Shown: positions 2,440-52,594 of the stretch, in pieces
Numbering within the stretch: position 1 is the first letter of the stretch
Layout of the letters: each line of letters begins with the position of its first letter
Assembly: GCA_951406725.2 (NCBI GenBank)
Contig: OX597817.1
Span: 106,454,001-106,518,000, forward strand
Origin: Octopus vulgaris
Taxonomy: Eukaryota
DNA length: 64,000 bases
Direction: 5' to 3'
Translations under genes and position numbers: made by a program
The notes under the pieces: generated by a model
Databases searched by the model: none
What the model saw: only the letters and a program-made list of their open reading frames with translations
What the model was told of the DNA's origin: nothing

Positions 2440-4920
2440 AACTGACGTCATTTATTTTCTCTGCTTGCAGCAGTATAATGCTTTCTGACGACTCACCTTT
2501 TGCCGACGAAATTTATAACATCTGTGATTGGAGTAAAAGAGTTCCATTTAATGTTTAAAATGCGATGAAGGCATTTTTGGTGGAGTTGTTCTAACAGTTT
2601 AAAATGTCTTTCATAACACGTATATTTTCACAAGAATACAACAGGGATCATAAGACAAATGATTTGTAAAGAGCCAATTTTGTATTGATATTTATATGTC
2701 GCTGGCGCCAAACGCGCGACTCCAAGTTACCAAATACTTTTGCTGCCCTTTGAATTCGCAGATGTATTTCTGTATCAAGATTTCCATCATTTTGTACAGA
2801 GCTACAAGGTAGATTAACTAATCGACAACCTCAAGTAACTTACTCTTAGCAAAAATTTTTGGTGGGTTACAAACACCACACGCAGGTTGATGCATTACAA
2901 CTTTTTTTTTCAAGTTGATGGTCAAGCCAAAATCATCACAAGCTAAGTCAACTGCAGATACAAGAGATCGCAGAAGTGTTTCAGAATGACTGACAAGATC
3001 GCAATCGTCAGCGTACAGAAGTTCCCTAATGAGTGAAATAAAATATTTCGTTTTGAATTTCAGTCTGGTCAGATTAAAAACATTCCCTGTTGTTCGATAT
3101 TTTATGTAAATACCTTCCTCATAATTTTGAAAAGCGTGTGATAACACAACAGCAAAGTATATTGCAAAGAGGATGTGTGCATCAAAGTCTCCTTGCTTTA
3201 CTCCATTTTCCACGGCAAAAGATTCAGAGAGCTTACCACCAAAATTAACTCTAGCTTTTATATCTTGATGCAAAGCCCTGATCATGTTTACAAATTTTTC
3301 TGGGCAACCTATTTTCCTTAGAATTAGCTACAGACCATTTCGATTAACAGTATCGAATGTTTTGCTCTAATAAACAAAGCAATGGTATAGGGCAAGATTC
3401 TGTTCTTGTAATTGTCTGATAGTAAAGATACAATCAGCTGTGCCCCTGAAGGAACGAAAACCACACTGAGACTCAGATACTATATTTGGAACTATGAAGA
3501 TATTTAATCGTTCTACTGCAAACAAAAACGAAATTCCACGAAAATTACTACAGATCCTTTGGCCCCGATTTATACAAGGAGACAAAAATGGCATTAATCA
3601 AGTCTTGAGGCACTTTCTCAATTCTTCAACAGTGACAAATTAATAGTTTTAAAAGTTCAAACATTTTGTCACACACCCACCTCCCCATTTCAAGACATAT
3701 GCACAGATTCCATCAGACCCTGGAGATTTATTGTTATTCAGCTTATTCACAGCTAAATAATGTCATTTTGAGTTGGTTCAAATGCCATATCTTCTATAAC
3801 TGGAAAGTGTTCGATTTTTTCTATCATCTACATGTCGGCGTATGATGGTCTATTCAAAAGTGTACAAAAATGTTTTACCCAACGCTTATGAATAGAAGCG
3901 GTGTCAGTCAGAAGAAAAAGTCCATTTGCTGTTCTCACTGGAGCCATTGAAGAAGATTTGGGGACATATACCTCCTTAATATAAGACTACAAACCGTTGG
4001 CATTACTTCTATCAGCTGATTCTTGTGTCTCTTTTGCTCTATCATTCCACCATTCCTGTGCCTCTTTTGCTCTATCATTCCACCATTCCTGTTTAATTTT
4101 CCTTAGAGCAGTCTGCACTTTCCCTTTCAGCTTTCTGTAAGGTTCGTTTGAGTTGGGGTTCAAGGACTGAGAAAGAAGTGTATTGCCTAAGTTTTGTTTT
4201 TCTAAAAGTAGATCATAAATTTCTGTTGAGAACCAGTTACTGGACTTACGTGATTTAAATCCCACTGACTAACTTGCAGCCTGAAATACTTTTGTTTTGA
4301 AATCTTCCCATAGATTGTTTGGGCCAAGATTGATACTTTCTATAGCATCGTGGAATCTTTGCAAGTTGCTTGATAATTTAAAGTTTGCAAATTTTAACTT
4401 TTTTTGGTACCTTAGGACCAGACTGTCGATTTCTAGGCGTTATCGAAAAATTTATTTTTCCACGCACTAGACGATCGTCAGTCCCGCTCTCTGCTCATCT
4501 CATGGCCTGAACGCTAGAAACGTCTTTCATATCACGTTTTCCGATCAAAATATTATCTATGAGACGCCAGTGCTTAGATCATTGGTGGATCCAGGTGGTT
4601 TTATATTTATTTTTCTGCAGATTATTCTCAATGCAAAACGTCAAAAGAGCTACTCTTTTTTTATTACATTTTCCAATCTCATGTTGACCTAAAATAGACC
4701 ATGAAACGTAGTCTTTTCCAACTCTAGCGTTGAAATATTCCACTTTGACCAGCTGGTCAGAAATTGATACTTTCCTCAATAATTGTGCTAGATCATCATA
4801 AAACTGTCCTGCAGTTTCATCAGATGGAACATTGTTGGCGCATAAATACTGACAACGGTAAGAAACCTACCTCTTGTCAGTTTAATACGGCATGACATGG
4901 TTCCTGCAGTTACTAATAGG
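2440..4920 (-). mobile_element. Decayed RTE-clade (BovB-like) LINE, endonuclease plus reverse transcriptase
   Basis: Collinear ORF fragments: VSIYAP and NARVG (APE), SQCGFR..RGTADCIFTIRQLQE, GVKQGD and LLYADD (RT). Many stops and frameshifts. Confidence 0.88.
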
Positions 4921-19879: not shown

Positions 19880-21790
19880 CTTGGGTTTTCAGAATGATTC
19901 ACGGGTAGGCTGATCGTCATGGACTTGACGTTCAGCTGTAGTAAGACTATCAGACTGGTTGCAATTTATGCACCCAATTCAACTGGGTAAAGTGGGTATT
20001 TTCGTGACCTGGAAAAGTTTCTGGGTACGTCATATTCACTAGTTTTGCTAGGAGACTATAACACAATCTGCGATACGCGCGTGAATTATGTTAGCTCATA
20101 CACAGACAGGAAAGGTAACTCTTGCCTCCAGGATCTGCTAAGTCGCTTTCAGCTAGCAGATCCATATAGACTGGAATTTCCGAACGCTCCATTGTGGACA
20201 TGGTCAAGCAGCGACAGGTCCTCCAGGTCATACTTAGATAGAATTTTTGTTAGAAAAGTAGATAGAAATATAGCTAAGTGTCCATAGTTCCACCTGGTCA
20301 GCTACAGTGATCACAAGCTTGTCACCTGTAAGCTTGACATAAATAAGCTATATAGTAGAGGTTCCGGCTACTGGAAGCTTAATACATCCTTTTTGGCGAT
20401 TGAGGAGTACAGAAACCGGATTAAGTTGTTAATACAAAGGGCATTATTAATAACAAATGGTGGTGTGCTCACAAACGAGCCATTAAATTTGCGTCTATTA
20501 GATATAGCATAGGTTTAGTGGCTAGAGAGAGTCTTAGCAGTGGCTACCCCTGAAAGGGAGGGCGGGGGTAGCCAATGTGTTTATCGCATCGGTCACCATT
20601 TACCGCCTAACCGTCGTTCCTTGCCCTGATTCGTGGTTAATCAAGCTGGAAAAACAGCTCCTCCACTTCATGTGGAGGGGATCGAAACCGCTTGTGAAAC
20701 GCTCTATTTCCTGCCAAGAACCGTTAAAGGGTGGACTACGGGTGCCTTGGATGTTGATGCGCACTGAGGTTGAGGCATCTGTGGTTTCACTTGGATGGTG
20801 AACGGGTGTGGTCTCCGCTAGTTCACTAGTTTCAGTGTACGGGAAACCTGGTTCTATCGTAGATCGAAGTTGGGTACATGGTTTACGGAGTGCCGTAAGG
20901 CTCTCCTGCTATTCTGTTGCTCGGGTTATGCCAGCGGTAGTGGTTCAACCGCATGTTTCTATAGAGGGTTGGTAGAGTCGGAATGTGACGATACCTTAGG
21001 GGAACCCTAGGTCTCGATGATAATCAGCTGGCCAGTCTGTTACAACGTACATTCGGGCCGAAGACCCTGGATAACTTTCAGAAGCCTCTGGCTTGGCAGT
21101 GTTACCGAGGAGCCTTGCCTATTCGAAATGAGCTCACAAGACGGTTGCCACGGCCCGTCGACCTGTCTAATATGCGGGCAAGACAGGGAAACCGTCCTGC
21201 ATGCTATTGTTCAGTGCTCGGAAGTGTGGGCTTATGTTGAACAACTATTGTCGAGTACAAGAAGAGTACAGCTGTCGTCTGAGTCAATTCTAAAAATTGA
21301 CCCACCTGTTTCCTTATCGAAAGAGGGTAAGAATTGTTTTCTCGTAGTAGTAGCAATTGCGAAAGAGGTGGCATGGAAGACTAGAGTGAAAGGACTGAAG
21401 ACAAGTAGCTTCATCTCTGGCCCTGCACTGGTGAATTTGTTCACTTTTCACCTGAAGAGAAAAATAGGGCTAGAGAGAAAATGCCTGTCGGCGAAAATGT
21501 TCACTAGTCGACGGATGAATGTAGCACGGATGTTGCGAATGAATGTAACCACATGAATACGATAAAGGACTTACCCCAGGTATCAGTGGCGAAACGGGGT
21601 TTGCAGGGTCCAAGCCGAACCCGTCTCCCCAACCCATTTGCGTTGTCTTATGTTGTTGTCCTATCATCCGATTTTATACTTATTGTAATTTTTAAACGCA
21701 TTTTATATGTTGTTCTCATTTGTGTGTCAGACCCAAATCAGATTGTATTGTCCCCTCTATGTTGGCCCCTTGTGGGCAATAAAAAATTAA
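19880..21790 (+). mobile_element. Internally deleted Tx1/L1-clade LINE with intact 3' end
   Basis: APE motifs GRLIVMD, IYAPN, LGDYN, SYLDRIFV, SDHK and YWKLNTS, then a jump near 20548 to the post-RT region. Zn knuckle CLICGQDRETVLHAIVQC; 3' UTR ends in a stem-loop plus AATAAA. Confidence 0.85.
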
Positions 21791-39134: not shown

Positions 39135-40085
39135 CTTAGTTTTAGGACCTCCTGCATTGGGCAGCGAGGCTTCTCCAACGGGGTCGGTCGGCCGTTGCAT
39201 TTCAGCTTCATCCTATGAAATGTCAATAGCTTTGAGATCATCGATGAAGGTGAAGTGCCAAGTCACTTTTGGTCGCCCTTGTTTTCTCCTGCCACGTGGT
39301 GGCTCCCACAGAATGGTGGTTTTCGCATGCCGCAACGATGGTAATCGGGGGACATGACCTGCGAATCGCATGCAGCGCTCAGTGACAACGTCATGGAGAG
39401 AACGGGTATAAGTTCGGCGATGTATTTCACCATTGGTGATGTGGTCCTGGTATGATATTCGCAGTATTCGCCGGAGGCATCGTAGCTGAAATACATTGAG
39501 CCTTCGCGCGATCTTTGCTGATGTCTTCCACGTTTCCGCCGCATATATTGCCGATGGTATGACGATGCTGTTGAACAGGCGCACTTTGGTCATGGTGGAG
39601 ATCGCCCTGCCTGCCTAGATGGGTTTAAGTCTTTTGAAACACAGCTGAGGCAGGCAACGTCGCGTTCGGCGTTTCGTCGTTGGCAACGACGCTGCTCAAA
39701 TAGATGGACTCATCAACTTCCTCGATTTGGTGTTGTCCAATCATCAAGGAGACGCCATTGTTGTTCCCATCGACATACCCAATGCTCATGATCTTCGTCT
39801 TGTTAGCACATATGCAGAGTTCGATCTTCGCCGCCTCCCGTTCTAATCTCTCTGTCATTGTGCGAATAACATTCTTCGTCACTCCGAAAAGCGCGATGTC
39901 ATCCGCGAAGTCGAGGTCAGTCAGACGCCCCGACCAACATCATGGAATCCCAAATCCGCGTTAGCACATCGTCCCGCGCATGGCGAAGTTGATCGCCATA
40001 AAAAACAGGAGTGGGGATACAATGCACCCTCGCCATACACCGGTCCCAATAGCTAAGTAGTCCGTGTAGTCCATCTCCGTTCGAA
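39135..40085 (-). mobile_element. 5'-truncated RTE-type LINE, GC/CpG-rich
   Basis: TGVWRGCIVSPLLF, LTDLDFADDIAL, KTKIM, TKVRLFNSIVIP..YAAETW, FQLRCLRRILRI and GRRKQGRPKVTW. Confidence 0.88.
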
Positions 40086-46473: not shown

Positions 46474-46587
46474 ATGGATGCCATCAAAAAGAAGATGTTG
46501 GCCATGAAGATGGAGAGGGAGCTTGCCACTGATAAGGCAGAACAAACCGATCAAAAATTACGGGATACAGAGGATAACAAGAACAAG
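46474..46587 (+). CDS. Tm: Tropomyosin, muscle-type coding exon 1 (aa 1-38, [38 protein letters not shown])
   Basis: ACC-ATG-G start context, the invariant tropomyosin N-terminus MDAIKKKM, and exactly 38 codons ending at an AAG|GTAAAA donor (the conserved tropomyosin exon 1 boundary). From memory the sequence matches cephalopod tropomyosin. Confidence 0.97.
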
Positions 46588-47496: not shown

Positions 47497-47622
47497 TTAG
47501 AAGAGGACCTTACTACTCTCCAGAAGAAGTTTTCCAATTTGGAAAATGACTTCGATAACGCAAAAGAACAACTTGCTGAAGCAAACCAGAAGCTTGAGAC
47601 TTCCGAGAAGCGTGTCGGCGAG
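47497..47622 (+). CDS. Tm: Tropomyosin coding exon 2 (aa 39-80, [42 protein letters not shown])
   Basis: Branch-like TGACTAAT, polypyrimidine tract and CAG acceptor; 126 nt = 42 codons of coiled-coil heptads; GAG|GTAAGT donor, phase 0. Confidence 0.96.
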
Positions 47623-51032: not shown

Positions 51033-51448
51033 GTGTGTATATATAAATTTGTCTACACACACGCAGGGTGTGTATATGTGTGAGTGCATATGAGGGTGTG
51101 ACTAAATTCTATAGAAAAAAACACTTCTTACTTTTTCAAACTTGCACAATTTAAAAACTTTAATTTAGTTTTCATTTCTAAACAACAACCAACTGTGTTT
51201 TATAACTCTTCATTAATTGAGAATAAAAACTGTAAAAAGTCTAGAGAACAACTATTATTTGTTACTATGCCTCAAAGTTCAACTTTTAGTTGTGTTTTCT
51301 TAGTTTTATAGTGATTTTTTTGTGTTAATATACTTTCATGACCATCTATGGCCAATGTGGGTAGAGACAAGTGATCCGGAGAGAGGAGGACGACGGCATC
51401 GGGAGGACGTGCGTGATTCATTGCCGCTATGGTAGAGGGAGGTTTTCA

Positions 51449-51489
51449 TGACGTCATAGCACCATATATGGAATGCTACGCATGGAATG
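51449..51489. promoter_or_regulatory. CRE + CArG + tandem MCAT motif cluster
   Basis: TGACGTCA (51449-51456), perfect CArG box CCATATATGG (51462-51471) and GGAATG twice (51470-51475, 51484-51489) within 41 bp of a CpG-rich patch. Confidence 0.6.
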
Positions 51490-51834
51490 CTGCCAGCAAC
51501 AAAACGCCAAGAACAGAATCCATATTGAGGCTTTGTCATCCACTGCCGTTCGTCCCTCTGTTAGCCGAAATTCTCCTTAAAGTTTCTCTTTAAAAAAAAA
51601 ACTGGATACCACAAAAAGTAAACTAAACAAGTGACTCAATTTTTATTAACAATTTTACATACATAATTATATACGTAATTAACATGAGATACATAGATTT
51701 AATGAAATATATGTAGTCATACACACATCTCTATAGAAAAAAAAATATCTACGTATAAATATTTATACAGTTGCGCGTATGTGTGTGTGCGAATAGATTC
51801 ACTTGTTGAGTAAGTGGTCTGTGGCAGACAGTTT

Positions 51835-51953
51835 ACAGTTGCGCGGAAGTAACTTATTGGTCAGTGTGTGCTTTTCGTTAATACTAAGATGTGGGCGGAA
51901 CTACGTTAACTGAAGCTGGTGCTGCAAGTGAATGGGTCGGCCGTGCTGAGACA
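51835..51953 (+). promoter_or_regulatory. Candidate internal promoter and 5' leader of the atypical exon, with two uORFs
   Basis: ETS-like CGGAAGT (51844-51850), reverse CCAAT (ATTGG 51856-51860) and Inr-like TCAGT (51861-51865). uORFs at 51889-51909 (MWAELR*) and 51932-51949 (MGRPC*). Confidence 0.5.
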
Positions 51954-52523
51954 ATGGGGGAGAAATGTCCAGCGGAACCGGACTTGTGCGATGTCGAGGG
52001 AGTTGACCTCTCGCAGGAATCCCTCGGCACGTTGGAATCTGACCAAGGCGTTGTAGGGTCACAAGACAGCTACACTTCTATACTTCCGGAAGACGGTGCT
52101 AAACTTAAGAAAAAGAAGAAAGATGGCAAAAAGACTAAGAAGAAGAAAAGTTCCAAGTCCAAATCTAAAGACGGAGATTCGAAAGACAGTGATGGCAAAG
52201 AACATAAAACAAAAAAGTCGTCGAGTAGTCGACGCCCTGAACCTGAGGGGGGTAATACAACCTCAAATGTCAACATGGACGAATATGACAAAGTTATTTA
52301 CAATAATGACCCCTTATTTTCTGACCTTGAGCTTTCCGACAAAGAAGGTGACTCCGAGTTACAGGTGCCGTCCAGGCAAAGACGCCAAACTCGTTTGATG
52401 GGTGTTGGTAGCAGTGGAATATTCATTCCCTGTACCCAGTTCGGCTTAAATTCGAACACCATGATCAAATTTGCAATCATAAGCACTGAACTGCAAAATG
52501 TCCTTCAAGTGTCGCTGAAAAGG
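51954..52523 (+). CDS. Alternative first coding exon of tropomyosin (190 aa low-complexity head, atypical Tm1-I/C-like)
   Basis: Long, stop-free ORF of unique sequence inside tropomyosin intron 2. ACA-ATG-G start; ends NTMIKFAIISTELQNVLQVSLKR at AGG|GTATGG in phase 0, the phase needed to join tropomyosin exon 3. Confidence 0.82.
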
Positions 52524-52594
52524 GTATGGATGAGATGTCTCTTAATATTAAGCTAGCTCCTGACTAATTCTGCATGGCTGATTCACCCATTCTT

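Follow-up and report, generated by a model that had tools for sequence, protein, structure and literature searches.

A helix related to the unique extension of Drosophila Tm1-I/C in an alternative first exon of octopus tropomyosin

The atypical first exon of octopus tropomyosin

The window analyzed here comprises 64,000 nucleotides of the Octopus vulgaris genome (contig positions 106454001–106518000), in which a tropomyosin gene was mapped by tblastn, with the search extended over the next 100 kb. The tblastn matches and the splice sites place the gene on the + strand, with exon 1 at 46474–46587 (residues 1–38) and exon 2 at 47497–47622 (residues 39–80). An atypical first exon is situated between exon 2 and exon 3. 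Its coding part (51954–52523, + strand) comprises 190 codons and translates into 190 residues with zero stops. The 3' edge reads AGG followed by GTATGG, a phase-0 donor, and the GT at 52524–52525 (+) opens an intron of 23,036 bases that closes outside the window at exon 3, whose phase-0 acceptor precedes contig position 106529560, 11.6 kb past the window. Because exons 1 and 2, both skipped by the atypical isoform, code for 38 and 42 residues, the atypical exon stands in for residues 1–80, in agreement with the preliminary description of this open frame and its donor.

A further alternative start, the short first exon of the low-molecular-weight isoform, is found at contig positions 106523002–106523124, 16.5 kb downstream of the atypical exon and ahead of exon 3; its 41 codons match the start of record P0325. 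The donors of exon 2, the atypical exon and the short exon, as well as the acceptor of exon 3, are all in phase 0. Beyond exon 3, exon 4 exists in four variants, exon 6 in three, and exons 8 and 9 in two each. The mutually exclusive exons lie at contig positions of about 106533900–106550000, the four exon-4 variants inside 1.1 kb, and some of them have strongly diverged from canonical tropomyosin. By eye, three other parts of the window (2818–4866, 19991–21556 and 39213–39939) resemble pieces of non-LTR retrotransposon reverse transcriptases and endonucleases, and a 507-residue open frame at another octopus locus (L021:3431–4954, G000:C7) resembles a retrotransposon reverse-transcriptase region.

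Contigs were examined from 4 of 24 listed runs, one from each of four studies; none of the 24 is on record as RNA, and the RNA status of the runs is a guess. The contigs stop precisely at 52523 in all four runs, and in two of them the contig continues from there into the first 29–30 letters of exon 3, in one case with a single differing letter. As this join spans 23 kb, it represents a splice although the runs were only guessed to be RNA, and the junction to exon 3 is thus read in two of the four runs. On the opposite side, a transcribed 5' leader (51593–51953, +) runs unbroken into the open frame. The contigs start at 51593, 51737, 51774 and 51776, with no upstream splice and no genomic loose end; 15 loose letters in run X6 are presumably sequencing adapter, which they resemble. 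Such starts fit a first exon rather than a cassette behind exon 2, and are not precise enough to fix the start site. A low-depth contig in run X1 spans 51317–51635. Runs X6 and X12 carry A instead of G at 52411, which turns codon 153, in a variable linker, from a Ser into an Asn codon and reflects an allele or a related species.

A CRE palindrome (51449–51456), a CArG box (51462–51471) and two M-CAT-like sites (51469–51475 and 51483–51489) lie on the + strand about 470–500 bases 5' of the ATG. They form a cluster of 41 bases (51449–51489) that was spotted post hoc and may serve either as the promoter for the atypical isoform or as an enhancer for the muscle form. The window as a whole holds 2 CRE, 2 CArG and 15 M-CAT-like matches, and none of these motifs singly exceeds chance. 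The leader contains two uORFs, of 6 codons (51889–51909) and 5 codons (51932–51949), the second of which ends 4 bases short of the main ATG; possibly they exert translational control.

The head encoded by the exon is 190/190 identical in the O. vulgaris records CAI9721608.1 and CAI9721606.1. Four O. bimaculoides clusters of 394–396 aa carry it with 185/190 identical residues, and the open frame is thus kept in another cephalopod, as had been anticipated. Searched against the genome, the final 99 residues of the head gave one match from one candidate. Spliced, nearly identical in O. bimaculoides, single-copy in the genome search and conserved in blocks across phyla, the segment 51954–52523 is more than a chance open frame and constitutes an alternative first exon of octopus tropomyosin.

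Composition, homology and distribution of the head

The composition of the head follows the acidic, Lys-rich, RRPEPEGG, acidic and amphipathic layout set out in the preliminary description. Residues 1–47 (51954–52094, +) contain 12 D/E and 1 K/R and are predicted to be disordered. They precede a Lys-rich tract (residues 48–95; 52095–52238, +) with 22 K/R and 6 D/E, a candidate RNA- or microtubule-binding segment, and basic tracts are placed alike in an alignment of mollusc and annelid relatives. Residues 96–137 are again acidic, with 12 D/E. A block conserved among lophotrochozoans (residues 94–124; 52233–52325, +) includes the RPEPEG motif, a predicted helix at 110–116 and the LFSD motif, with invariant columns; no Pfam family spans the head, this block included. 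The head ends in a hydrophobic helix (residues 166–190; 52449–52523, +) that corresponds to residues 257–281 of Tm1-I/C. In several annelid-type heads (P0016, P0017, P0018, P0048, P0082, P0098 and P0149), Cys/His motifs occur 5' of the RPEPEG block and would possibly constitute a small metal-binding element, which is absent in octopus.

A single-chain model consists of one helix that extends from 167 to 395 and the short helix at 110–116. Across most of residues 1–165 the predicted pLDDT is below 50, which describes a disordered, low-complexity head. The coil matches the tropomyosin family PF00261 with 214 bits against a curated cut-off of 38.6, as scored on the head-bearing octopus record P0003.

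The last 25 residues of the exon are identical to the fly extension (PDB 7BJS chain C) at 13 of 25 positions, and the same chain confirms the fly sequence given in the preliminary description. When exon 3 is included in the search profile, three fly aTm1 chains in the PDB outrank every canonical tropomyosin. Since exon 3 is common to all tropomyosin isoforms, the head was also tested alone. A lophotrochozoan head-only profile places 7BJS_C at the top of 177,635 PDB sequences (E = 4.7e-4) and 7BJG fourth (E = 0.89), below two unrelated matches; the octopus ORF as a single query against the PDB returns nothing significant, so that the profile is needed for the fly link. In the reverse direction, an arthropod-only profile of 20 heads, one per chosen genus, ranks the octopus ORF first among 7,254 six-frame fragments, both with the whole head (E = 4.2e-4; runner-up 0.48) and with the helix (E = 1.1e-7; runner-up 0.0063). 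Cross-scores between arthropod and lophotrochozoan heads beat the shuffled maximum in 77/77 and 20/20 cases, and HHalign gives the helix region a probability of 98.5%, figures that lean high because the sets were cut by a pattern on the helix itself; the cross-score set omits 8 of 87 matches, and 3 more failed the helix pattern. Residues K172, I176, E179 and N182 are invariant in 24/24 aligned isoforms from both groups. Read by hand, the last 25 residues of exon 2, and likewise those of the short first exon, have 0/25 in common with the helix. A search of the ESM Atlas for look-alikes returned tropomyosin clusters only and added nothing.

Upstream of the helix, the heads of arthropods and lophotrochozoans show no alignment. 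HHalign gives this region a probability of 0.75%, 0/77 and 0/20 cross-scores exceed the shuffled maximum, and the fly RNA-binding N-domain is consequently without a shown octopus counterpart. The conserved blocks of this region are group-specific, comprising RPEPEG and LFSD in lophotrochozoans and a Cys-containing block in arthropods. A loose RP-x-x-EG-like motif in 13 of the 20 arthropod heads comes from a post hoc pattern without a control and is regarded as a lead only.

Two profile searches describe the distribution of the exon. The first, built from 11 sequences across the final ~100 head residues, finds 87 proteins at E ≤0.001 among 1.84 billion. Eight of them were flagged by a pattern as continuing into the tropomyosin coil, and three more do so by eye; most others end soon past the helix, as expected of gene calls made from a single exon. 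The second, with the head and 25 residues of exon 3, finds 112 proteins of at least 290 aa among the best 7,997 word-sharing candidates. Molluscs are represented by 11 genera and flatworms by seven, two annelids are present as well, and another 38 named rows are arthropods: a centipede, a springtail, insects of several orders, crayfish, Daphnia, Artemia and an ostracod. Look-ups by cluster, in which 10 of 30 proteins carried names, bring in Lineus (a nemertean) and Owenia. No chelicerate, nematode, deuterostome or cnidarian names occur among the 112 rows, which is not proof of absence since only the best 7,997 candidates were scored. In all 29 inspected rows of the 39 arthropod-type ones, the helix directly abuts exon 3 or the short exon. 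Fused gene models from an ostracod, a gastropod and a bivalve preserve the order head, short first exon, exon 3, and in those from a centipede, a fluke and an annelid exon 2 precedes the head. Records from Teleopsis, Glossina and Bactrocera (P0182, P0186 and P0188; 1,024–1,089 aa) combine the head and a full coil with a long Pro/Ala-rich tail and may be gene-model artefacts.

Taken together, the comparisons support homology between the octopus helix and the Tm1-I/C unique extension. The earlier notion of a Tm1-I/C-like head thus stands for the helix, by two head-only tests, and does not stand for the Lys-rich tract and the RPEPEG and LFSD motifs, which have no measurable arthropod homology. 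That the fly likeness is convergent, or the ORF no real exon, is hardly credible and largely refuted. The alignable part is short, at about 25 residues, and heptad helices look alike, but convergence would leave unexplained the splice junction to exon 3, the reciprocal profile matches, the position and phase shared against exon 3, the exon order shared in fused models and the 0/25 identity of the helix with sister 5' exons. With the exon present in both Lophotrochozoa and Arthropoda, the isoform class is likely older than the ecdysozoan/lophotrochozoan split, as had been suspected. A tropomyosin with predicted kinesin binding likely dates to the common ancestor of molluscs, annelids, flatworms and arthropods.

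The predicted kinesin-1 interface

The fly complex provides the reference for the octopus helix. According to PMC8247599, aTm1 252–334 binds two Khc chains in antiparallel orientation with a Kd of 141 nM, and a 247–334 fragment alone binds Khc and partially rescues oskar localisation. The I267A/L271A mutant displays weaker Khc binding and oskar localisation, and most of the RNA binding resides in the N-domain (PMC8247599). According to two other reports, aTm1 stabilises Khc autoinhibition (PMC10948360) and serves many basal mRNAs (PMC9606379).

All six mutated interface residues of the fly protein (I267, L271, L279, L296, L300 and L307) are kept in octopus at an offset of 91 as I176, L180, L188, L205, L209 and L216, the first three within the exon's own helix. 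The fly R292–D299 pair is likewise kept as R201 and D208. The sole mismatch among the fly residues named in the available text of PMC8247599 is Q278, which is S187 in octopus and whose mutation in the fly had no effect (PMC8247599). On the kinesin side, the octopus Khc cargo-binding exon is identical to 7BJS_A at 42 of 46 positions and keeps the three RNA-binding basic residues (numbering by hand); the human chain preserves this site nearly as well, so that its conservation has no discriminating value. An initial pattern for the kinesin tail, used in the search for octopus Khc, matched repeats and unrelated ORFs only.

A complex was modeled from two copies of O. bimaculoides Khc 846–915 and residues 161–243 of the octopus head isoform (P0003). 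The model scores 0.65, compared with 0.01 for the best of three controls, none of which is a canonical tropomyosin; as the like fly complex (7BJS) is already solved, the score is a measure of likeness, not of binding, and may echo 7BJS. The mark applied is reached by 51/78 solved and 2/108 mismatched microbial pairs, and by 39/65 solved and 2/126 unrelated eukaryotic pairs. Agreement among the three model runs amounts to at least 88% of contacts, with a partner pLDDT of at least 80. Residues 165–216 are predicted to pack against the two Khc chains in antiparallel order, and the lowest-error contacts involve I176, L180, V183 and L188, all inside the helix of the atypical exon. The kinesin-1 link put forward in the preliminary description thus gains support from residue conservation and from a model with that possible echo.

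We consider it probable that the exon endows octopus tropomyosin with a disordered head and a Khc-binding-type helix, by which the isoform binds the cargo-binding stalk of kinesin-1 in a three-stranded antiparallel coil. By analogy with the fly, binding would stiffen the Khc stalk-tail, keep the motor inhibited and strengthen its hold on RNA, to which the Lys-rich tract would add affinity. In that case the isoform would serve to clamp kinesin-1 and as a cofactor in mRNP loading, instead of coating actin. The helix could instead be homologous to that of the fly and serve antiparallel self-assembly or another coiled-coil partner, kinesin binding being an arthropod or fly co-option. The fly homodimer and the Khc complex use one face (PMC8247599), so that conservation of I176, L180 and L188 fits either use, and the RPEPEG/LFSD and Cys-containing blocks point to lineage-specific partners. 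Such a role is nevertheless unlikely, given the weakness of the fly homodimer (Kd of 10 µM versus 141 nM for Khc; PMC8247599), the gap between the octopus complex model and its controls, and the four residues invariant in all 24 isoforms.

The accessible part of PMC9829102 reports that Aplysia Khc immunoprecipitates contain three tropomyosin isoforms of 46.7–46.9 kDa and three of 29–33 kDa. The head-bearing Aplysia isoform X10, of 46.8 kDa, falls within this size class. The coverage of 22–27% fits shared coil peptides, X10 itself is absent from the list, and the table also includes actin and ribosomal proteins (PMC9829102), while an antibody-only control does not appear in the accessible passages. 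With no tie to a head-specific peptide in that text, the immunoprecipitate was not taken as support.

The coil and the relation to known tropomyosins

The Octopus records do not show a partial coil like the one that the preliminary description gives for Drosophila Tm1-I/C: all four head-bearing clusters (394–396 aa) carry the full coil instead of residues 81–165. The head-to-tail exon pairings come from RefSeq models, and short-coil forms could be missed by the length floors of the searches (at least 334 aa for the Octopus clusters and at least 290 aa for the second profile). Among the 29 inspected arthropod-type proteins, 21 have 203–205 residues beyond the helix, equivalent to a full coil, and one Anopheles record ends after exon 4, like the fly form. 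The simplest reading would be that head and full coil are ancestral and that the fly form is derived.

Losing residues 1–80 removes the N-terminal overlap required for head-to-tail polymers on actin. The full coil in the Octopus records and in those 21 arthropod-type proteins, together with the single helix modeled at 167–395, is what speaks for a mainly actin-associated isoform, in which a parallel full-coil dimer ends or decorates tropomyosin strands and the head tethers kinesin-1 or other cargo. We regard this as decidedly improbable in view of the missing overlap region, of a full-coil pairing that rests on RefSeq models, and of the fly protein, which is not enriched on microfilaments according to the available text of PMC5286366. 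The kinesin clamp faces a related objection, as the long octopus coil may stay a parallel dimer, which would hide the interface.

Of the coil, fly Tm1-I/C has residues 81–165 only, followed by a 69-residue N/S/T-rich tail; filaments depend on this tail, which is confined to Sophophora (PMC7519307). No such tail occurs in the Octopus records or in read-through past the four exon-4 variants, where the added stretches measure about 38, 1, 27 and 16 residues and none is rich in N/S. The isoform shares a disordered head and a coil with the fly protein, but without this tail intermediate-filament-like polymers are very improbable indeed in octopus.

A broader proposal, which we advance tentatively and think rather unlikely to hold as a whole, is that the protostome ancestor possessed a third kind of tropomyosin. 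It would have combined a kinesin-1 clamp with a full coil, with mRNA and kinesin at the N-terminus and docking to actin or canonical tropomyosin by the C-terminal periods, and would serve as a Klc-independent adaptor for mRNA transport or hand-over in mollusc, annelid and flatworm neurons and oocytes; the fly form would be a late truncated offshoot with a filament tail. If the helix is a pan-protostome exon, kinesin and tropomyosin were linked long before flies arose, and the short coil and the filament tail would have been added late. The ancestral cargo then could not be oskar, which, to our knowledge, is not expected outside insects. The isoform would be a candidate for regulating kinesin-1 and transporting mRNA independently of Klc in classic animals of neurobiology (squid, octopus and Aplysia) as well as in planarians and schistosomes, with point mutants already set by the fly structure. 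The comparison also exposes the lophotrochozoan motif block as conserved.

The exon is already present, unnamed, in automatic gene models of O. bimaculoides (X9, X15, X17 and X27), O. vulgaris (the two records above) and Aplysia (XP_035829767.1), and heads are found as well in models from Haliotis, Patella, Mytilus, Magallana, Lineus and Schistosoma, all named only tropomyosin isoform or hypothetical protein; the lophotrochozoan reach is the new part. The Discussion of PMC8247599, as available, states that aTm1 is present in Drosophilidae, and PMC9606379 regards it as a means by which the fly transports oskar and epithelial mRNAs. The available portions of PMC5286366, PMC8247605, PMC8456996, PMC5921574 and PMC10512467 deal with the fly protein only. 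Neither literature listings nor these partial texts mention the head in molluscs or in any other lophotrochozoan, or link it to Tm1-I/C; the founding fly papers may cover other insects.

Canonical high- and low-molecular-weight tropomyosins (PF00261) share exon 3 onward and the mutually exclusive exons with the octopus isoform, but lack the head and have N-termini that permit head-to-tail polymers on actin. The closest known system is Tm1-I/C of Drosophila melanogaster (aTm1; PDB 7BJS, 7BJG and 7BJN). Both proteins have an alternative 5' end joined to residue 81, a disordered head and a related helical extension with the Khc-interface residues kept, and an antiparallel 2:1 Khc complex is predicted for octopus. 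By contrast, the octopus head upstream of the helix has no detectable homology to that of the fly, and the octopus forms keep residues 81–284 and have no N/S-rich tail. Two defining features of Tm1-I/C proper, the short coil and the tail, are thus missing in octopus, while the kinesin interface, as judged from sequence and model, appears alike.
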